From positions 55,596-119,595 of the forward strand of contig NZ_CANMCZ010000001.1 of the NCBI RefSeq assembly GCF_947496485.1: a stretch of DNA of 64,000 bases. Direction: 5' to 3'. The position numbers and the translations under genes are program-made. Under the pieces are notes generated by a model. That model ran no database searches. It worked only from the letters and a program-made list of their open reading frames with translations, and was not told the DNA's origin. The stretch's first letter is position 1, and the number at the start of each line of letters is the position of its first letter. This document shows positions 1 through 10,939 of the stretch, piece by piece. The stretch is from an uncultured Winogradskyella sp. (GTDB taxonomy: Bacteria; Bacteroidota; Bacteroidia; Flavobacteriales; Flavobacteriaceae).

Positions 1-858
1 GGTTCCAAAGTCAAAATACGCTTTGTTTGTAAATATATTTTCAATAAGGTGGTAATGTAAAAAATCTAAACTTCCCAATTCATTTTTATTTTGGTTACCA
101 GAGATATACTGGCAATGTGCCACATTTTCGGTTTCAAATATTGTAGTACCACCTACAATTACGCCATCTTTAAACACATTAAACTGTCTTATATTGTTTT
201 TAAAACGAGATTTTAATAATGTTATTTCTTCCAAACTATGTACAGGTTTTACATTATGTTTAGCTTCTAAATTTGGAATTAAAATTGTATTCCAAAAGAT
301 ATCAAAACTATTTGATTCTTCAACACTCAAGTTAGACTTAGCGGCCCTTTTAACACCTTCTTTTCTGCTATTTGAATACGATTTAAACTTAGTATTTACA
401 ACAGAATGCATATCGGTTCTTAATAATTCTGCTTTGACTTTAAATAACAAATAAGCCATTGGATTATTTGTTTGATTATGCAGATAGATGTTTGGGAGTT
501 CTTTCATAACCAAATTCTTTAGGCCATTATCATTTAAAAATTTTAAAATAGCCTTAAAGCTATTAATAGCTTCAGTTGATTTTAATTCCTTACTAAAAAG
601 CATTCCACCGTAAGTCAAACCTTGATGCGAATAAACAGTACCCTCTAATATGTTAGCAGGCAATACAACTATAAGCTTGTCATTCTTATAGATCATCAAT
701 GAAAAATCCTGAAATCTATCACTATGATAGTCCATAAAGTCTCTATGAAACAAAAAAGTGTCTTGATTGCTTTTTTGGACAAAGTCGTTCCAAACTTTAT
801 AATCGTCTTTACTATATTTTTTTACTCGAATAATAATTGCAGTCTTTAGTTTATCAAT
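1..858 (-). CDS. FemAB/GNAT-like N-acyltransferase (3' end runs off the left edge; start codon uncertain)
   Basis: Missing from the ORF track. My translation of the minus strand found no stop in the lines I translated (1-60 and 241-858): ...VWNDFVQKSNQDTFLFHRDFMDYHSDRF...YSHQGLTYGG...FWNTILIPNLEAKHNVKPV...YFDFGT, matching the flavobacterial 'methicillin resistance/GNAT' family found near surface-glycan loci. In-frame TAA at 861-859 bounds the 5' end. Confidence 0.8.
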   Translation of the reverse strand, partial: MDKLKTAIIIRVKKYSKDDYKVWNDFVQKSNQDTFLFHRDFMDYHSDRFQDFSLMIYKNDKLIVVLPANILEGTVYSHQGLTYGGMLFSKELKSTEAINSFKAILKFLNDNGLKNLVMKELPNIYLHNQTNNPMAYLLFKVKAELLRTDMHSVVNTKFKSYSNSRKEGVKRAAKSNLSVEESNSFDIFWNTILIPNLEAKHNVKPVHSLEEITLLKSRFKNNIRQFNVFKDGVIVGGTTIFETENVAHCQYISGNQNKNELGSLDFLHYHLIENIFTNKAYFDFGT

Positions 859-864
859 TTAAGC

Positions 865-2343
865 TTAATTAAGTATATCTCCTTGATCATTAATTAATTT
901 TTCTACACTTTTAAAGCCAAAAGAATTTAATCTTAGATTGTAGCTCGAATCATCTTCCAAGTGCTTTAGATATTTTTTATCCTTACTTAATGCAGAAAAT
1001 AAAACACGAAACAAGTTGACATTAGTTTTTAAGTCCTTATCGTAATCTTGTTCTAAATTACCATTCCATTTAATCGCAGCAATGTTAGAAAAAGTAGAGT
1101 TTATTAATTCAGTTTCAGTGTTAGAATACAAATCATTAAAACTTTTTAGACCTACCCAACCACCATGGTCTGCCAATATAATAATAATACTATTTTCGTC
1201 TTTATCAGTAATATAACTTATGGTACTTTTTAACCAAGTATTTACGTCTTCAATGCGTTCATTATACCTATTTCGTTCTTTAATAATAACATCATCTATC
1301 TTAGGAAACCCAACGTGATGTGGAAGTAATTTTTCAATAAAAAAGAATTTCGGGTTTTCATTTTGATGTTTCATAGCAAGTTTCAAATCAACAAATACAT
1401 CCCTTACCTCCTCATCTCCTTTGCTATAAAACGGAAAATCATCTAAAGCTATATTAAAATAATCAAATGCTTGCTGTTTTCTGTTTTGTTGAAAGTATTC
1501 ATCTTGAGCAATAAAATAGGTGGTATAGTTATTATTCTTAAAGATAGAAGCTACAGGATTAGAAGTTGAGATAACCTCTCTTGCATTAGCCATTTCAATT
1601 TCAGGAAAAAGCATATTGGCGAATTTATGTTGCTTCATTGCAAACAAAGACGCGTTTGAAGTTAAACTTGCAGGATAATTACTTCTAAAATTATCATAGA
1701 CTTTAAATTCATTTTGTTCTAACCATAGATATAAATCGCTTTTAAAATCATATGGTGATTTTTCTAAAGTACTCTGCGAAACATAACCATCTGGCTGGAT
1801 AAGGTAAATATTTGGTGACGATTTAAACTTTACATCCATAATGTCATCATCTTGCCTTGTCCAATATTCTGGTTTTACATCTTCATACAGATGAACAATC
1901 ACTCTGAAGAAGGATAAACTAGAAAAAAAGAAAAGAAATATGATTACCTTTTTGTAGTTCTTCTTTGGTCTTTTCCAAAAGAATAAGCCCAAGACTACTA
2001 ATCCTGTGATAAGAACAATTCGCTTTAATGGAGATACGAAAAAGGTATGCGACAAGAATACAAATACAGCGCATAATAAAACTATTAGAAGTAGATATTT
2101 TGTATTCTTCTTAAATTTTTGATTTTTTGCAAAAACTAAATACAATAACGTATAGATTAAGAATGATGAACCAATAAAAACCAGAGAAAAAAATAAAAGA
2201 TGGGACCAAGAGTTTACTGCCCAATAGTTGTTAGCATAATAAAAAAGCATAGGGGTTAATCCACTTATTAGTGCAGCCAGATATGGAGCGTGGTTTTCGC
2301 TATTAATAAAATTATCTATTTGCTTCTTTAATCTATTTACCAT
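865..2343 (-). CDS. Membrane-anchored sulfatase/LtaS-like (alkaline phosphatase superfamily) protein, paralog 3
   Basis: About 5 N-terminal TM helices, then SPNIYLIQPDGY, RSNYPASLTS and IIILADHGG motifs. Start placed at MVNRLK (2343) by analogy with MVNNLR of paralog 1. Confidence 0.8.
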   Translation of the reverse strand: MVNRLKKQIDNFINSENHAPYLAALISGLTPMLFYYANNYWAVNSWSHLLFFSLVFIGSSFLIYTLLYLVFAKNQKFKKNTKYLLLIVLLCAVFVFLSHTFFVSPLKRIVLITGLVVLGLFFWKRPKKNYKKVIIFLFFFSSLSFFRVIVHLYEDVKPEYWTRQDDDIMDVKFKSSPNIYLIQPDGYVSQSTLEKSPYDFKSDLYLWLEQNEFKVYDNFRSNYPASLTSNASLFAMKQHKFANMLFPEIEMANAREVISTSNPVASIFKNNNYTTYFIAQDEYFQQNRKQQAFDYFNIALDDFPFYSKGDEEVRDVFVDLKLAMKHQNENPKFFFIEKLLPHHVGFPKIDDVIIKERNRYNERIEDVNTWLKSTISYITDKDENSIIIILADHGGWVGLKSFNDLYSNTETELINSTFSNIAAIKWNGNLEQDYDKDLKTNVNLFRVLFSALSKDKKYLKHLEDDSSYNLRLNSFGFKSVEKLINDQGDILN

Positions 2344-2354
2344 TATTATCACTA

Positions 2355-3845
2355 CTATTCAATCTTATTAAATACTGCCAATCCAGACTCATCAATATAC
2401 TCATAAATACCTGTCGGAGCACCTTTTCTAATGATGATATAACTTTTATTGTCTTGTAGGTTATCCAAATATGATTCATCTTCGCTTAAATGCGAAAATA
2501 AGACCCTAAATAAGTTTACCGAGGTTTTAATCTCAGAATCAAAATTTGGTCTTGTATTATTTGGCCATTTTATAGCTAATATTGAAGAAAACATTGAGTT
2601 AATTAATATTGGATCTGTGACTTTAGTCTTACTCTCTATTGTGTAATTAAAACCTACAAAACCACCATGATCTGCTGCGATAATAATTAAACCGTTAGGA
2701 TCCTTTTCAGTAATAAAATTTACCAACTCCATTAACCATTCATTAGCTTGCCCAACTTGCTCTAAGTACTTAACCCTTTCTTTTTCTGCGGAGCTAGAAG
2801 CTTTATACTCTGTAGTAATATGACTGGGTAACATAGACTCAATAAAAAAGAAGTTAGAAGTATATTTATTTTCAATTATTGCCGCCTTCGTATCTTCTAT
2901 TAATTCTTTTTGCTTTGAAAAACCTCTAGAAATATACGACACTTCATCTAATGAAAAATTACAATAATCAAAGTCAATATTAGGTCTATTAGAAAGTAAA
3001 TAAGGCACTTGAAGCATTAAAAACGTTTTATAGTTATTGTGCTTCAAAATTCTTAAAACAGGATTGCTTTCAACAATTTCATTTCTTCTATTATGCCTTG
3101 GGTTAATACCAAGAGTTGTATTTCCGTAATAGTGATGTTTCATTGAAAACATAGAACTATTGGTGCTTAAGGTAGAGTAATAATTGCTACGATAATCATC
3201 ATAAGTTTTAAAACCTTTCGTTTTTAGAAAAACTTCAAACTCACTATTATCATAATTGTAAATTGAATCTTTAAATGTTGAAAAACTAGCATAACCATCT
3301 GGCTGTATCACATATATATTTGGACGTTTTTTAAAGACTACTTTTTCAATAGTATCTGGTTGTTCCATCCATTGCTTTGAATACACAACTTCTCTATAAA
3401 TATCTGGAATCAACTTTGGTAGTACCAAAAAAGCCAGAATAAACTGAATCACAACGATTTTTTTTATGTACTTAGCAAATAATATACCCAAACAAACACC
3501 TAAAACCAAAGACAAGACTAATTTAACTTTTTGAAATCCATATACACTTACTACTATAAATGCAAAGAAGCATACCAAGTTGATAACTGGTAATAAAAAT
3601 CTTCTTATGTTTTCTTTTGGATAAAAATGTTTAAATAAAAAATCTAAAATGAAATACGTTAATAATGGCAGTATGATGTATAAAGAAACTAGGAATAAAA
3701 ATTGCGTCTTTGAGTTTATTAATGCATAGTTCTTATCATAATAGTACATAAGCGCATATAAACTTGAAGCCACTATTGTAATTATGGGATATGCTTTGCT
3801 ATCATTCAAAAAAAGTCTTAGTTTCCTTTTTAAATATCCAAACAT
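2355..3845 (-). CDS. Membrane-anchored sulfatase/LtaS-like protein, paralog 2
   Basis: TM N-terminus; RPNIYVIQPDGY, RSNYYSTLST and IIIAADHGG motifs; clear homology to both flanking paralogs. Confidence 0.8.
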   Translation of the reverse strand: MFGYLKRKLRLFLNDSKAYPIITIVASSLYALMYYYDKNYALINSKTQFLFLVSLYIILPLLTYFILDFLFKHFYPKENIRRFLLPVINLVCFFAFIVVSVYGFQKVKLVLSLVLGVCLGILFAKYIKKIVVIQFILAFLVLPKLIPDIYREVVYSKQWMEQPDTIEKVVFKKRPNIYVIQPDGYASFSTFKDSIYNYDNSEFEVFLKTKGFKTYDDYRSNYYSTLSTNSSMFSMKHHYYGNTTLGINPRHNRRNEIVESNPVLRILKHNNYKTFLMLQVPYLLSNRPNIDFDYCNFSLDEVSYISRGFSKQKELIEDTKAAIIENKYTSNFFFIESMLPSHITTEYKASSSAEKERVKYLEQVGQANEWLMELVNFITEKDPNGLIIIAADHGGFVGFNYTIESKTKVTDPILINSMFSSILAIKWPNNTRPNFDSEIKTSVNLFRVLFSHLSEDESYLDNLQDNKSYIIIRKGAPTGIYEYIDESGLAVFNKIE

Positions 3846-3866: not shown

Positions 3867-5249
3867 TTATGATTTTTTCCTTAGCAGAAATATAACTCTT
3901 TTAGAACCTTCGATTTCCTTTTGTTCTAAAATTTCGAACTCATTAGAATATGCAGAAATGAAATTATCTAAATTGTAAAAACCGAAATGGTCTTTAAAAT
4001 CTGCTTTATTATTCAAAAGACGTTGTACCCAAGAATCTTCGCGTTTTGGAAATTCAATAATTAAATGTTTAGAAAAAGAACTAAAAAATTTAGCAGATTC
4101 GCTAAAAGGCACATTACCAGATAATGACATATGATGTATTACGGCTAGAGCGAGTGTTGCTTCTGGTGCAAAAGCTTCTATTCTATCTAAAAAAGAATCG
4201 CGCTCTTTATTATTTAATCCAATAGCTGCTGAAGGATTTAATACATCTAAAACAAAAGGAAGCATGTTTTGTTCCTTATTCAATTTCATTGTTTTATGAT
4301 TAAAATCAACAGCATTGTTATCAATATCGCAAACTAAAGCTGTTTTAACAGCACTATTTAGTTTTCTTACAAATGTACCGTCATTACCACCAATGTCAAT
4401 TAAACGCTCCGGTTGAATTGTATTAATCCATGTGTTTATAATCTCTGATTTTTTTATAAAAGCATCATCCGTATAGTTAGTCTTATCATAATAATTCCCC
4501 CATTCTGAATGTTCTTTTAGTTCTAATTTTTTAATATAATCGTATAAACTCTGAATGATATTAAGCTGACCTTTTTTTGATAATGAAGCCTCTTTAGCTT
4601 CACCTTTATAATCCTCGTTATGCTTATCTTCTAGCTTAGCTAAAAGGTGAATATTTGAATATAATATCGGGCTCAACTTTGTCTTAAATGGCAGCATAGA
4701 CCTAATCATCTTCACAGGAATACCATCAATAAAATTACTCAATAATTTTAAGGATTGTGCACCATGATAATGCGCCAATAATAAAGGTCCAAAAAAGTGA
4801 GTAATAAATTGTTTGTAAGCTCTCCACGGAGAATTTTCCAGATAAAAATCAAACGATAGTGTATCTATAAAAATAGCTTTCCCTTTATGAAATGTAACAT
4901 TGAAGGCTGTTGCATCTTTTAAAGAAAATCCTTTTTCTAAACTATATTTTTGAAGCTTTAGCGTTAGTAAAGCTGCTTCTTTATACATATTAAAACTCCA
5001 TTCGTAGGGATAGGTAACAAACGGAATTTTTTCGGCCTTTAAGATAATTTCCTGTTCAGAATTTGATACTTCTTCATGAGGAATCAACAAATCATTTTTA
5101 AACAAATTATTATAAAAACCACTTTTCGTAAGTGCATTATATTGGTTAAAGTAGATAGGATTAATAGTCCTTTTTATCTCACCATTGTCTACAAAAATGT
5201 AACCTGAAGGATCTCTAAAAGAGGAAGAATGAGCGTTTTTGGCCTGCAC
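3867..5249 (-). CDS. NoeA-like protein: kinase-like N-terminal domain plus class I SAM-dependent methyltransferase
   Basis: GTG start; SFRDPSG N-terminus, YPYEWSF, LKDATAFN...FIDTLSF, and SAM motif I LIDIGGNDG at about residues 283-291. The resemblance to Sinorhizobium NoeA is from recall. Confidence 0.75.
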   Translation of the reverse strand: MQAKNAHSSSFRDPSGYIFVDNGEIKRTINPIYFNQYNALTKSGFYNNLFKNDLLIPHEEVSNSEQEIILKAEKIPFVTYPYEWSFNMYKEAALLTLKLQKYSLEKGFSLKDATAFNVTFHKGKAIFIDTLSFDFYLENSPWRAYKQFITHFFGPLLLAHYHGAQSLKLLSNFIDGIPVKMIRSMLPFKTKLSPILYSNIHLLAKLEDKHNEDYKGEAKEASLSKKGQLNIIQSLYDYIKKLELKEHSEWGNYYDKTNYTDDAFIKKSEIINTWINTIQPERLIDIGGNDGTFVRKLNSAVKTALVCDIDNNAVDFNHKTMKLNKEQNMLPFVLDVLNPSAAIGLNNKERDSFLDRIEAFAPEATLALAVIHHMSLSGNVPFSESAKFFSSFSKHLIIEFPKREDSWVQRLLNNKADFKDHFGFYNLDNFISAYSNEFEILEQKEIEGSKRVIFLLRKKS

Positions 5250-5262
5250 TTATTTATTATTT

Positions 5263-6753
5263 TCAATCTGTTATGCTTTCAAAAATAACGTTATTATCTT
5301 TATCAATAGCTTTATAAACACCTAATGGTGCTCCTTTTTTAATCGCCAAATAGCTGGCATCTTCTTGTAAGTGTTCTAAATATGAAGCTTCATCAGATAA
5401 ATAGGAAAACAAATTCCTGAAAAAATTTACTGAACTTTTAAACTCTAGGCCTTTTGGTTCTTGTCCATTTGGCCATTTCACAGCCAGAGCAGTAGTAAAA
5501 ACAGATTTTATGAGCTCATCATCATCTTGCTTTATCTTTGCTTCATAAATACTATCCATCCCAACAAAACCTCCATGATCTCCCATAATGATAATTAAAC
5601 CATTGCCATCTTGTTTTTCAATAGTTTCAATCATCATTTTTAACCATTCATTTGCTAATTTAAGATTTTCTATATACTCTAATCGCTCACCCTCTTTGCC
5701 TAAATTATCATAACGCGATTGTGCAATATGCGCTGGAGATAATTTTTCAATGAAATAGAAATTCTTAGAATTAGAATTTAATTGCATTGCTGCTTTAATA
5801 TCTACTATCAAATCTCTCTCTATTTGAAATCCATCTGATAAATAAGGCATATCTGAGTATAAAATGTTATTGTAATCGTAATTCATCTCAGGACGACTAA
5901 CGATTAGATATTCATTTTCAAGAAGTAATGATGTGCTATAATTATTCTTTTTAAATATGTCTATTACAGGATTATTACCAGCTATAATACTTCTAGATTT
6001 ATAAGATTCTACGCGCTTTTGATCCATATAGTTGTAATAGTGATGTTGCATTGAAAACAAAGAACTATTGGAACTTATTGTAGAAAAATAATTACTCCTG
6101 TAATCATTGTATAAATTAAATCCTTTAGCCGATAGGTAGTTTTCAAATTCAGAATTATCAATCTTATAGTGCCCTTTTTTTAGTTCTGAAAAATTGGCAT
6201 AACCATCGGGTTGAATCAAATATATATTTGGTGTCATTTTAAATACAACGTTTTCTATATCATCAGGTTGTTGCATCCATTCTACCGATTGAAAAATCGA
6301 AGAATAAAGCTTAGGTGTCATAAGAAAGAAGGCAATAAATGCTAAAAACAACTGAAAAACCATAAGTTTTTTAATATGCTTACCAAGCAAAACACCAAGT
6401 AGGAGTGCTATCACCAAAACGATGGTAAAACTCAATATATTTAAACCTGAAGTACAGATAATAATCAGGAAACCAAACCAAAATATATTCAAAATCGGAA
6501 TAATGTATTTTTTAAAAGTTTTTAATGTATTGACTTTGCTGAAAATAAAGCGAAACAAGAAAATTGATAAAAACGGAATGCAAATGAAGGCAACAAGAAA
6601 AAATACAATATGCTTTAAAGAATTAGCGTGACCAAAATTTGAAGCATAATAATAGAAGATTGGATATAAACCGGCTGAAAGTGCAGTTATAAAAGGAAAA
6701 TCTTTATTTGATTTAATGAATTTTAAAATAAACATGCGTAAGTTATTAACCAT
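5263..6753 (-). CDS. Membrane-anchored sulfatase/LtaS-like protein, paralog 1
   Basis: TM N-terminus; TPNIYLIQPDGY, RSNYFSTISS and IIIMGDHGG motifs. Confidence 0.8.
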   Translation of the reverse strand: MVNNLRMFILKFIKSNKDFPFITALSAGLYPIFYYYASNFGHANSLKHIVFFLVAFICIPFLSIFLFRFIFSKVNTLKTFKKYIIPILNIFWFGFLIIICTSGLNILSFTIVLVIALLLGVLLGKHIKKLMVFQLFLAFIAFFLMTPKLYSSIFQSVEWMQQPDDIENVVFKMTPNIYLIQPDGYANFSELKKGHYKIDNSEFENYLSAKGFNLYNDYRSNYFSTISSNSSLFSMQHHYYNYMDQKRVESYKSRSIIAGNNPVIDIFKKNNYSTSLLLENEYLIVSRPEMNYDYNNILYSDMPYLSDGFQIERDLIVDIKAAMQLNSNSKNFYFIEKLSPAHIAQSRYDNLGKEGERLEYIENLKLANEWLKMMIETIEKQDGNGLIIIMGDHGGFVGMDSIYEAKIKQDDDELIKSVFTTALAVKWPNGQEPKGLEFKSSVNFFRNLFSYLSDEASYLEHLQEDASYLAIKKGAPLGVYKAIDKDNNVIFESITD

Positions 6754-6800: not shown

Positions 6801-7010
6801 TTATGATTCCTTTGAGTTATTACTTTCAATATCAGAATCCTCAATATCAATATCATCAAAAACATCGTCTTCAATTGGTTTAGCCATACCTAAAAAAACT
6901 TTAATTTTGTACATTAAGTTTTTAGAGAAAAGCACAACTCCCGCTACTGCTGCTATAATAGCTTGAATAATCATAGCTCCTAAACCTGGATCAAAATATA
7001 GAAATGTCAT
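6801..7010 (-). CDS. Small single-TM membrane peptide with N-terminal Y-x-D-P-G motif and acidic tail (69 aa)
   Basis: MTFLYFDPGLGAMIIQAIIAAVAGVVLFSKNLMYKIK...DDVFDDIDIEDSDIES. Internal ATG at 7010 preferred; a TATCTTTA -7-like element lies at 7026-7033. Confidence 0.7.
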   Translation of the reverse strand: MTFLYFDPGLGAMIIQAIIAAVAGVVLFSKNLMYKIKVFLGMAKPIEDDVFDDIDIEDSDIESNNSKES

Positions 7011-7097
7011 CTCGTTTATTTTTTGTAAAGATATAAAATTAAAAAAAGGAAACACATTATGCGTTTCCTTTTAAAAACCTAAGAATAGGTTATAATA

Positions 7098-8897
7098 TTA
7101 TAGGCTCTTATTACGCTTACGATCTACTTCTTTCAAGTAAATCTTACGTAATCTTATATGATTTGGTGTTACCTCTACATATTCATCTTTCTGAATATAT
7201 TCCAAAGCTTCTTCTAAAGAAAATTTAATTGCAGGTACAATCTTAGCTTTGTCATCTGCACCAGAAGAACGTACATTACTTAACTTTTTAGTTTTAGTTA
7301 CGTTAACCGTCATGTCATCTCCACGAGAGTTTTCACCAATCACTTGTCCTTCATAAATATCTTCACCTGGATCTACAAAAAACTTTCCTCTATCTTGTAA
7401 TTTATCAATAGAATAAGGAATTGCTTGTCCGTTTTCCATAGACACTAAAGATCCGTTTTGACGTTCAGGTATTCCGCCTTTTAATGGCATATATTCTTTA
7501 AAACGGTGAGCCATAATAGCCTCACCAGCAGTAGCTGTTAATAATTGGTTTCTTAATCCAATAATACCTCGAGATGGAACTAAAAATTCACATACCATTC
7601 GTTCACCCTTGGCTTCCATACTTAGCATTTCGCCTTTACGCATCGTTACCATTTCAATGGCTTTACCAGAAACATGCTCAGGTAAATCAATAGTCATTTC
7701 TTCAAAAGGCTCACATTTTACACCATCAATTTCTTTAATAATTACTTGTGGCTGACCAATTTGAAGTTCGTAACCTTCACGACGCATCGTTTCTATTAAA
7801 ACCGATAAGTGTAATACGCCACGTCCAAATACCATAAATTTATCGGCACTATCCGTCTCTTCAACTCTCAGTGCTAAGTTCTTCTCTAATTCTTTAGTTA
7901 AACGATCTTTAATGTGACGAGAGGTTACATATTTTCCATCTTTTCCAAAGAAAGGAGAATCGTTAATTGTAAATAGCATACTCATCGTTGGCTCATCGAT
8001 AGCTATCGTTTTTAAACCCTGTGGATTTTCAAAATCGGCAACAGTATCACCAATTTCAAACCCTTCTAATCCAACAATAGCACAGATATCACCTGTTTGT
8101 ACTTCTTCCACTTTTAAACGCCCTAAACCTTCGAATGTATGTAATTCCTTAATTTTATTTTTAACAATAGAACCATCTCTTTTTACCAAAGAAATTTGTT
8201 GTCCTACTTTTAAGCTACCACGAGTTAAACGACCAATAGCAATACGACCAGTAAATGAAGAAAAATCTAAAGATGTAATTAACATCTGCGTTGTACCTTC
8301 TTCAATTTTAGGCTCAGGAATATGCTCAATAACCATGTCTAATAATGGTTCTACATTTTCAGTTTCATTTTTCCAATCGTCACTCATCCAGTTGTTCTTT
8401 GCAGAACCATAAACCGTTGGAAAGTCTAATTGCCATTCTTCTGCACCTAACTCAAACATTAAGTCAAAGACTTTTTCATGAACTTCATCTGGTGTACAGT
8501 TTTCTTTATCAACTTTATTGATAACTACACATGGTTTTAAACCTAAATCAATTGCTTTCTGCAGCACAAAACGTGTTTGAGGCATTGGTCCTTCAAAGGC
8601 ATCTACTAATAACAAAACACCATCTGCCATATTCAATACACGCTCAACCTCACCACCGAAATCGGCGTGACCAGGTGTATCAATAACATTAATCTTAGTA
8701 TCTTTATATACAACAGAAACATTTTTGGATGTAATAGTAATTCCTCTTTCGCGTTCCAAGTCGTTATTATCTAGAATTAAATCTCCTGTGTTCTCATTTT
8801 CACGAAATAACTGACAGTGGTACATAATCTTATCTACCAATGTTGTCTTACCGTGATCGACGTGTGCAATGATTGCAATATTTTTAATATTAGCCAT
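7098..8897 (-). CDS. typA: Translational GTPase TypA/BipA
   Basis: NIAIIAHVDHGKTTLVD, DTPGHADFGGEVERVL and NKVD motifs; start at MANIKN (8897). Confidence 0.98.
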   Translation of the reverse strand: MANIKNIAIIAHVDHGKTTLVDKIMYHCQLFRENENTGDLILDNNDLERERGITITSKNVSVVYKDTKINVIDTPGHADFGGEVERVLNMADGVLLLVDAFEGPMPQTRFVLQKAIDLGLKPCVVINKVDKENCTPDEVHEKVFDLMFELGAEEWQLDFPTVYGSAKNNWMSDDWKNETENVEPLLDMVIEHIPEPKIEEGTTQMLITSLDFSSFTGRIAIGRLTRGSLKVGQQISLVKRDGSIVKNKIKELHTFEGLGRLKVEEVQTGDICAIVGLEGFEIGDTVADFENPQGLKTIAIDEPTMSMLFTINDSPFFGKDGKYVTSRHIKDRLTKELEKNLALRVEETDSADKFMVFGRGVLHLSVLIETMRREGYELQIGQPQVIIKEIDGVKCEPFEEMTIDLPEHVSGKAIEMVTMRKGEMLSMEAKGERMVCEFLVPSRGIIGLRNQLLTATAGEAIMAHRFKEYMPLKGGIPERQNGSLVSMENGQAIPYSIDKLQDRGKFFVDPGEDIYEGQVIGENSRGDDMTVNVTKTKKLSNVRSSGADDKAKIVPAIKFSLEEALEYIQKDEYVEVTPNHIRLRKIYLKEVDRKRNKSL

Positions 8898-8920
8898 AAC
8901 TGATGCTGATTTTAAGCGCG

Positions 8921-8928
8921 CAAAGGTA
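8921..8928 (-). promoter_or_regulatory. Bacteroidetes -7 promoter element (TACCTTTG) for typA
   Basis: Matches TAnnTTTG, about 24 nt upstream of the ATG at 8897. Confidence 0.65.
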
Positions 8929-9106
8929 CATCTAATTATTCTCAATTCGTTAATTATATGTTATAATTTTATTTTTAAACAATTTGAGTTTGTATCTTTC
9001 GTTAAATATCTGATTAATAGTAAGTAAGCCTATCTTTCAAATCAATCGCTACTTCGGCTATTTACACCTTTAAAAAGGTAAATCTGAACCCTTAAATTAA
9101 AAACAG

Positions 9107-10088: not shown

Positions 10089-10096
10089 TATCTTTG
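10089..10096 (+). promoter_or_regulatory. -7 promoter element TATCTTTG for kdsA
   Basis: TAnnTTTG about 25 nt upstream of the ATG at 10121. Confidence 0.6.
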
Positions 10097-10120
10097 AGCT
10101 GTAATCATCTTTACAGATTT

Positions 10121-10939
10121 ATGAAATTAAATAGTATTCCTAAACTAAAACATACAGAATCCGATAATTTCTTTCTGCTTTGTGGTCCTTGCGCCATTGA
10201 AGGGGAAGATATGGCACTTCGTATTGCGGAAAAAGTTATTTCTATAACGGATAAGTTACAAATTCCATATGTTTTTAAGGGTAGTTTTAAAAAAGCCAAT
10301 AGAAGTAGAATTGATAGTTTTACAGGCATCGGAAATGAAAAAGCCTTGAAAATTTTGAAAAAAGTATCTGAAACTTTTGACGTACCTACAGTTACTGATA
10401 TTCACGAAGTTTCAGATGCAGCAATGGCTGCAGAATATGTCGATGTTTTACAAATTCCTGCATTTTTAGTTCGCCAGACAGATTTGGTAGTTGCTGCAGC
10501 AAAAACAGGAAAAGTGGTCAACTTAAAAAAAGGCCAATTTATGAGTCCTGAAGCGATGAAACATGCCGTTAAAAAAGTCAAAGATGCAGGAAACGATAAA
10601 GCATGGATTACAGATAGAGGTACTATGTTTGGCTACCAAGATATGATTGTAGATTTTAGAGGTATTCCAACCATGCGGCAATATGCTCCAACAGTTTTAG
10701 ACGTAACGCACTCTTTGCAACAACCTAACCAAAGTGCAGGTGTTACAGGTGGTCGACCAGATATGATCGAAACTATTGCTAGAGCTGGAGTCGTAAATAA
10801 TGTGGATGGCTTGTTCATTGAAACCCATTTTGATCCTGCTAATGCTAAAAGTGATGGCGCTAATATGCTTCACTTAGATAATTTGGAGGCATTGTTGAGC
10901 AATTTGGTGGCTATAAGAAAGTTGGTTACTTCTTTTTAG
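10121..10939 (+). CDS. kdsA: 3-deoxy-8-phosphooctulonate (KDO8P) synthase
   Basis: GPCAIE, FKKANRS, QIPAFLVRQTDL, KKGQF, DVTHSLQQP and FIETH motifs; start MKLNS at 10121. Confidence 0.97.
   Translation: MKLNSIPKLKHTESDNFFLLCGPCAIEGEDMALRIAEKVISITDKLQIPYVFKGSFKKANRSRIDSFTGIGNEKALKILKKVSETFDVPTVTDIHEVSDAAMAAEYVDVLQIPAFLVRQTDLVVAAAKTGKVVNLKKGQFMSPEAMKHAVKKVKDAGNDKAWITDRGTMFGYQDMIVDFRGIPTMRQYAPTVLDVTHSLQQPNQSAGVTGGRPDMIETIARAGVVNNVDGLFIETHFDPANAKSDGANMLHLDNLEALLSNLVAIRKLVTSF

Follow-up and report, generated by a model that had tools for sequence, protein, structure and literature searches.

The locus considered here raises the question of what is fused to a methyltransferase (MTase) encoded on the minus strand of a 64,000-nucleotide stretch of DNA from an uncultured Winogradskyella sp. 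(the window, at its full length). A sequence-only reading of this DNA had proposed that the N-terminal half of the 460-amino-acid product, whose open reading frame (ORF) starts with GTG, hides a protein-kinase-like (PKL) domain, and that the protein is a bifunctional kinase-MTase conceptually like WbdD, the O-antigen terminator of Escherichia coli O9a. In our analysis the protein is most likely explained as a bifunctional kinase-MTase of the NoeA / Lani_1194 family, by which a glycoconjugate precursor would be modified together with membrane partners. Fold, conserved residues, family membership and operon conservation were computed; catalytic activity, reaction order, substrate and product are what we infer.

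The two halves of the protein and their family

The full-length protein was modelled with AlphaFold2 using 102 diverse sequences (predicted local distance difference test score (pLDDT) 95.8, predicted template modelling score (pTM) 0.94), and the pTM implies that, in the model, the kinase-like half and the MTase half are confidently packed together in a fixed arrangement. When this model was searched with Foldseek, the top 50 matches were all class I MTases (Hen1, NodS, RmtB and the WbdD MTase domain among them) and included no kinase. Because MTases swamped that search, residues 1–245 were modelled separately (pLDDT 95.3, pTM 0.92), and the Foldseek search of the PDB with this N-domain model gave 106 matches at E ≤ 1e-3, the top 50 of which were all protein kinases or kinase-fold small-molecule kinases (including PknG, CK2α, the amicoumacin kinase AmiN, ROCK1, KSR1, VRK3 and IRAK4), with alignments covering the whole 245-amino-acid query and the CMGC kinase 9av6 as best match (E = 3.9e-5). 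A PKL fold is thus predicted for this half, as had been supposed from the letters. In the N-domain model strands 16–21 and 24–29 (with R27 on the second), helices 31–42 and 45–51 and strands 58–63 and 68–72 are followed by a conserved YPYEW hinge segment, a long helix 86–105, strand 108–110 and K111-D112...N117, and then by strands 118–121 and 124–127, D129, strand 133–135 and a long helix 145–162. As modelled, the order of secondary-structure elements matches that of the PKL core, D112, N117 and D129 are placed among the strands as their counterparts are in kinases, and the domain is predicted to be a compact, divergent kinase-like domain. The amphipathic helix that had been read ahead of the motif (EAALLTLKLQKYSLEKG, residues 91–107) was recovered as helix 86–105 of the model, directly preceding the strand-loop-strand that carries D112 and N117; judged by the order of elements it would be equivalent to αE, and the SFRDPSG loop possibly stands in for the Gly-rich loop.

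Translation and nucleotide coordinates were checked for GFSLKDATAFN (residues 107–117), FIDTLSF (127–133) and the S-adenosylmethionine (SAM) motif LIDIGGNDG (283–291); D at 112, N at 117 and D at 129 were confirmed, 5 and 12 positions apart, and all of the positions given in the sequence-only reading, including a SAM motif near residue 283, are exact. An exhaustive homolog search with residues 1–250 gave 3,601 clusters at 50% identity, and conservation was counted in 126 full-length representatives that are pairwise less than 50% identical. The three residues on which the kinase proposal had been built were near-invariant in these representatives (D112 99%, N117 100%, D129 100%) and invariant in the 45-sequence N-domain alignment A3, and R27 (100%), E83 (99%, within the YPYEW hinge segment), W84 (99%), Q147 (99%) and G176 (100%) were conserved to the same degree. 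The D-x4-N...D motif is meaningful because these residues are conserved across the family.

Sequence searches miss the kinase-like half, so that its description as 'hidden' was apt. When the whole protein was scanned with Pfam and NCBIfam, the matches were confined to sub-threshold ones to MTases, with nothing in residues 1–250, and a Pfam scan (E ≤ 10) of 45 N-domain sequences gave no credible family, single members having matched RIO1 (0.01) and Kinase-PolyVal (0.11). No kinase was found with phmmer against PDB sequences, where only spermidine-synthase-like motif I matches appeared, or with a profile of the 45 N-domain sequences against PDB sequences. A ribosomal protein L15 match (E = 1.7) in the PDB sequence searches was discarded as spurious.

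The MTase half is real: its motif I is kept across the family, and class I MTases are what the full-length model matches. D285, G287, N289, G291, D308, D310, H372 and H373 were all 92–97% conserved in the 126 representatives, the top Foldseek matches of this half were the Hen1, NodS and WbdD MTase domains, and the family profile found its best PDB sequence match in the WbdD MTase domain (E = 2e-4), with phosphoethanolamine N-methyltransferases as weak matches.

The family search gave more than 5,000 matches, which are named in databases as 'class I SAM-dependent methyltransferase', 'nodulation protein NoeA' or 'PrmA'. Winogradskyella supplies the closest relatives (81–87% identity); the 471-amino-acid Lani_1194 ortholog of Legionella bozemanae matched over the full length (41% identity, E = 3e-118, R27 aligned with R38), and Sinorhizobium meliloti NoeA matched over residues 8–458 (E = 1e-61), with equivalents of the R, D, N and D retained despite 30% identity. 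By sequence comparison the window protein is a plain member of the NoeA / Lani_1194 family. This family was described by Krysinska et al. in 2022 as a novel kinase-methyltransferase family and likened to WbdD, with R38 assigned as the equivalent of PKA K72, conserved equivalents of D166, N171 and D184, the MTase retained in 94% of about 2,000 homologs, and Flavobacteriales as the second most populous order (PMC9758233). The assignment of the fold is real and ordinary for its family, and the case rediscovers a published prediction. Of the two outcomes that the sequence-only reading had named as refuting it, a predicted fold other than PKL and a lack of conservation of D112, N117 and D129 among homologs, neither was observed. 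What stood of the bifunctional proposal is the kinase-like fold, as modelled, and the MTase, by motif I and its matches; its novelty fell to the publication of 2022, and kinase activity and a methyl-phosphate product keep the conditional standing that they are given below.

The operon and its neighbourhood

The coordinates of the gene, its domains and motifs, and its neighbours are collected in the table.

Features of the kinase-MTase locus (positions in the window; residue numbers refer to the 460-amino-acid protein)
Feature	Position	Strand	Basis or remark
NoeA-like / Lani_1194-family gene, kinase-like domain + class I SAM methyltransferase, 460 amino acids	3867..5249	-	ORF, full-length homology, AlphaFold2 model
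Predicted atypical protein-kinase-like domain, residues 1 to ~215	4605..5249	-	N-domain model, Foldseek
SFRDPSG, conserved N-terminal loop, residues 10–16	5202..5222	-	S10, D13 and G16 at least 90% conserved
R27, invariant Arg on second long N-lobe strand, proposed β3 Lys (PKA K72) substitute	5169..5171	-	100% conserved; aligns with Legionella R38
Helix 86–105, amphipathic, αE-like position before catalytic loop	4935..4994	-	DSSP of models
KDATAFN, putative catalytic-loop equivalent (K111, D112, N117)	4899..4919	-	K111 95% conserved; between strands 108–110 and 118–121
FIDTLSF with D129 (putative DFG-Asp equivalent) and S132	4851..4871	-	I128 96%, S132 99% conserved; between strands 124–127 and 133–135
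Class I SAM-dependent methyltransferase domain, residues ~245–460	3870..4517	-	Weak Pfam MTase matches at 278–430, Foldseek, family profile
SAM-binding motif I, LIDIGGNDG (283–291)	4377..4403	-	D285, G287, N289, G291 95–97% conserved
H372-H373, aligned with WbdD H132/H133	4131..4136	-	Each 95% conserved
Small single-pass membrane protein, 69 amino acids from internal ATG, motif YFDPGLGAM, first operon gene	6801..7010	-	Homologs upstream of NoeA-like genes
NoeB-like paralog 1, multi-pass transmembrane anchor + alkaline-phosphatase/sulfatase-fold domain	5263..6753	-	Pfam Sulfatase 29.2 bits; BLAST cluster of S. meliloti NoeB
NoeB-like paralog 2	2355..3845	-	43% identical to paralog 1; cluster 1 (NoeB cluster)
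NoeB-like paralog 3	865..2352	-	37% identical to paralog 1; Pfam Sulfatase 30.5 bits
Terminator-like hairpin after typA/bipA, upstream operon boundary	7044..7072	-	13-pair stem, then T run
typA/bipA, translational GTPase	7098-8945	-	Strong Pfam matches

In the direction of transcription the order is small membrane protein, NoeB-like 1, kinase-MTase, NoeB-like 2 and NoeB-like 3, with gaps of 2–21 nucleotides (nt) among the four large genes and 47 nt between the small ORF and NoeB-like 1. The small ORF had also been read as 84 amino acids (6801..7055); it was shortened to 69 because the longer reading runs into the typA terminator hairpin at its 5' end and the internal Met is where homologs start. 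Its product has one hydrophobic segment, gave no match in a Pfam scan of the small protein family, and is probably the counterpart of Lani_1193. The kinase-MTase is without a hydrophobic segment and is therefore presumably cytoplasmic and soluble, and the small protein may anchor it to the membrane. A scan for sigma-70 promoters was uninformative (46 sites against 41 expected), Bacteroidota using other promoter types.

NoeB-like paralogs 1 and 3 passed the Pfam Sulfatase cut-off of 25 bits, and D183, T225, D392 and H393 are conserved in the NoeB-like proteins, with hydrophobic segments in the region 43–154. A metal site combined with a Thr nucleophile, as in LtaS and EptA, is the pattern of phospho-group transferases that work outside the membrane. 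A direct BLAST comparison of one flanking paralog with S. meliloti NoeB did not reach significance (E = 6.5), and the relationship to NoeB is seen only via transitive clustering, a hidden Markov model (HMM) and shared Pfam Sulfatase matches. An Acyl_transf_3 match (21.6 bits, cut-off 31) in the transmembrane region of the ORF at 865-2352 was rejected as a membrane-composition match.

Conservation of the neighbourhood was assessed in 82 loci, namely 80 genome loci (among many phyla, Flavobacteriaceae, Chloroflexota, Aminicenantes, Melainabacteria, the candidate phyla radiation (CPR), an archaeon and Legionella), S. meliloti pSymA and the window. The NoeB-like family, true NoeB included, was recognised in 55 loci when ORFs were clustered with BLAST, and with an HMM in 60 of 82 (48 of the 66 with intact flanks); almost always its gene lies directly downstream of the NoeA-like gene and on that gene's strand, at distances of -10 to +27 nt. 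A single-pass protein of 65–80 amino acids with the motif Y(L/F)DPG(L/T)G(A/S)M was found upstream in 56 of 82 loci and was adjacent in 50. These neighbours agree with those already described as conserved, Lani_1193 (a small hypothetical protein) and Lani_1195/NoeB (alkaline-phosphatase fold; HHpred match to EptA, 3.2e-27) (PMC9758233). Recurrent ORF clusters c2, c7 and c13 were dismissed as antisense artefacts of high-GC genomes.

Further observations on these loci are as follows. The motif of the small protein is N-terminal and is accompanied by an acidic C-terminal tail, and its gene often overlaps the NoeA-like gene; it also occurs at L001:4718-4966 and L075:5763-5978. NoeB-like copies number 1–4 in relatives, Rasiella (L020) having four, and Winogradskyella luteola (L004) has the layout of the window, with one NoeB-like gene upstream and two downstream; the tandem paralogs suggest a diversified acceptor specificity. 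Full-length homologs of about 40% identity, each with a Sulfatase-fold neighbour, were found in metagenome-assembled genomes of Methanobacteriota (L054) and of Woesebacteria and Woykebacteria (L067, L070), and with these archaeal and CPR loci the module extends across domains of life. After the module, Flavobacteriaceae relatives carry genes for a 305-amino-acid protein, a DegT/DnrJ/EryC1 aminotransferase, a Wzx-like flippase (Polysacc_synt) and a GT2 glycosyltransferase, so that what adjoins the NoeA/NoeB module looks like a surface-glycan cluster. The homolog of the 305-amino-acid protein, conserved in 16 Flavobacteriaceae loci, is a partial ORF at the left edge of the window (1-858, minus strand, no Pfam match). 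On the other side, at 10094-10939 on the plus strand, lies a gene for a 281-amino-acid DAHP_synth_1-family protein, of a size that fits KDO-8-phosphate synthase (KdsA), which is syntenic with the module in 18 loci; its presence probably reflects synteny within the lineage and not a functional link.

Proposed reaction and its alternatives

In the preferred explanation, the kinase-like domain (residues 1 to ~215) would pack against the class I SAM MTase (~245–460), with D112 as catalytic base, N117 and D129 as Mg2+ ligands and R27 in the place of the β3 lysine. A hydroxyl of a glycan or glycolipid precursor would be phosphorylated at the expense of adenosine triphosphate (ATP) and the same substrate would be methylated from SAM, the enzyme working with the small single-pass membrane protein and the NoeB-like LtaS/EptA-type membrane enzymes, of which the window has three. 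The conserved operon with membrane partners makes it probable that a cell-envelope or secreted glycoconjugate is decorated. A WbdD-like order, in which the substrate is phosphorylated and the phosphate then methylated, is suggested by the WbdD profile match and the H372/H373 alignment, and the leading candidate product would be a methyl-phosphate ester, as with WbdD. The parts of this proposal differ in strength: the PKL fold and the family membership can be held with high confidence, and an active phosphotransferase is expected with moderate confidence, while a methyl-phosphate product is possible but doubtful because the HH pair is not unique to phosphate methyltransferases. Rather unlikely, as a more far-reaching proposal, is that small membrane protein, cytoplasmic kinase-MTase and LtaS/EptA-like transferase constitute a widespread three-part system, occurring in bacteria, CPR lineages and some archaea, that installs a phospho-ester, possibly methyl-phosphate, on envelope or secreted glycoconjugates. 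NoeA would then synthesise or prime the group on the cytoplasmic side, and which acceptor receives it outside the membrane would depend on the NoeB paralogs (1–4 per genome).

A number of results weigh against the preferred explanation, and they are considered here and in the next paragraph with the alternatives on which they bear. The bare D-x4-N...D pattern is weak evidence and within chance: D-x4-N-x10-13-D arises in 31% of composition-preserving shuffles of the 460-amino-acid protein and is found in 11 of the window's 43 ORFs with 200 or more amino acids, and the domain was linked to kinases by none of the sequence methods (Pfam, NCBIfam, PDB profile). That the motif is a chance occurrence in a non-kinase N-terminal extension of a methyltransferase is nevertheless highly improbable, being contradicted by the conservation in the 126 representatives and by the N-domain Foldseek matches. 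More weight attaches to a kinase fold that transfers no phosphate to a substrate, either as a pseudokinase (binding substrate or nucleotide, or regulating the MTase) or with other ATP-dependent chemistry such as AMPylation or glutamylation. The family has no conserved Lys corresponding to the canonical β3 Lys (VAIK), the invariant R27 standing on the equivalent strand instead; helices 31–42 and 45–51 are without an invariant Glu that could be the αC partner, and the αC Glu of the Lani_1194 family could not be identified in the earlier description either, in which the family is placed at the edge of kinase sequence space (PMC9758233). The domain is compact (about 215 amino acids), the N-domain Foldseek template modelling scores are modest (0.34–0.48, with large root-mean-square deviations), and the equivalence of D112 with PKA D166 would rest on topology and the published assignment. 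Against a pseudokinase it can be argued that the catalytic Asp, which pseudokinases usually lose, is kept here along with N117 and D129, and that an Arg could still contact the phosphates of ATP; this alternative is considered unlikely.

Quite possible, and the most serious of the alternatives, is that both domains are active and that the analogy with WbdD is wrong, either as different atoms are modified (O- or N-methylation of a sugar and a separate phosphorylation) or as NoeA prepares, in the cytoplasm, a phospho-alcohol or lipid donor for transfer by the NoeB-like enzymes to an acceptor outside the membrane. Structurally, NodS (an N-methyltransferase) and Hen1 (a 2'-O-methyltransferase) are neighbours of the MTase domain, and phosphoethanolamine N-methyltransferases matched weakly in the profile search. 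In the NoeB-like proteins a Thr nucleophile and a metal site, both LtaS/EptA-like, are retained behind a transmembrane anchor, EptA and LtaS use phospholipid head groups as donors, and NoeA, having no transmembrane segment, and the NoeB-like proteins would probably be on opposite faces of the membrane. For a WbdD-like reaction speak the best MTase profile match, which is WbdD with its essential HH pair aligned, and the close fusion of the two halves with their confidently predicted packing, which favour consecutive action on one substrate; neither is decisive. H132A and H133A each abolish the MTase activity of WbdD, and NodS and RebM have HH or YY at the position of the pair and do not methylate phosphate (PMC3482155), so that sharing it is no proof of phosphate methylation. 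WbdD R203 and Y16 fall outside the region aligned with the family profile. The partnership with NoeB, moreover, is not universal, because Anaerolineae / Chloroflexota loci (L031, L032, L041, L044 and L047) have the NoeA-like gene without a NoeB-like neighbour, and the NoeA-like family may have a second, NoeB-independent role; in these loci a topoisomerase I gene lies upstream and a protein of about 335 amino acids with a hydrophobic N-terminal region downstream. Biochemical data on any NoeA / Lani_1194 member, and experimental work later than 2022, were not found in the searchable literature, and the sole functional data are the genetics of 1995, by which noeA and noeB are host-range nodulation genes of S. 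meliloti.

The family is large (3,601 N-domain clusters), is spread over many phyla and is named in databases only as methyltransferase, PrmA or NoeA; its kinase-like half has no model in Pfam and NCBIfam, and its founding member has been a host-range determinant since 1995. If kinase activity and product were confirmed, a new glycoconjugate modification pathway would be named and thousands of annotations corrected, and if the three-part module were true it would provide the long-sought biochemical role of the S. meliloti host-range genes noeA and noeB.

Comparison with known systems

WbdD, by which the O-antigen of E. coli O9a is capped, is both a kinase and a phosphate methyltransferase (PDB 4azs, PMC3482155). 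Like the window protein it joins a kinase fold to a class I SAM MTase in one polypeptide, its MTase domain is the best profile match and a Foldseek match of the window protein, and its essential H132/H133 align with H372/H373. The order of domains is MTase, kinase and coiled coil in WbdD, whereas in the window protein the kinase-like domain precedes the MTase, which bears out the reversed order noted in the sequence-only reading; as modelled, the window protein ends at residue 460 with the strands of the MTase, without the C-terminal coiled coil of WbdD. The kinase domain of WbdD has no detectable sequence relation to the window N-domain and is absent from the top 50 N-domain Foldseek matches, and, unlike in WbdD, Arg replaces the β3 Lys in the window protein. 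The partners of WbdD are Wzm/Wzt and mannosyltransferases, while those of the window protein are NoeB-like enzymes and a small transmembrane protein; the window operon is not of the wzm/wzt/mannosyltransferase type and lies downstream of typA and the DAHP_synth_1-family gene, the rest of the window not having been scanned for wzm/wzt.

The Lcin_0519 family, the second Legionella kinase-MTase family, is likewise a fusion of a kinase fold with an MTase for which envelope-glycan modification is predicted; by its description it is set apart by the other relative orientation of the domains, an often present coiled coil and Wzm/Wzt/glycosyltransferase neighbours (PMC9758233).

Closest is the NoeA / Lani_1194 family itself, and the finding in the window is not a new kind of system. 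The window copy differs from NoeA and Lani_1194 in being chromosomal and from a marine flavobacterium, rather than a symbiosis-plasmid gene or a predicted effector, and in having three NoeB-like paralogs, one of which lies between the small ORF and the kinase-MTase gene; unlike in the nodL-noeA-noeB operon of S. meliloti pSymA, a NodL- or OafA-type acyltransferase was not found in the window operon. Shared with both are the succession of kinase-like domain and class I MTase from N- to C-terminus, the Arg in place of Lys (R27, corresponding to R38), the conserved D, N and D, and the neighbours, with a small membrane protein encoded on the upstream side and a NoeB-like protein of alkaline-phosphatase fold on the downstream side.

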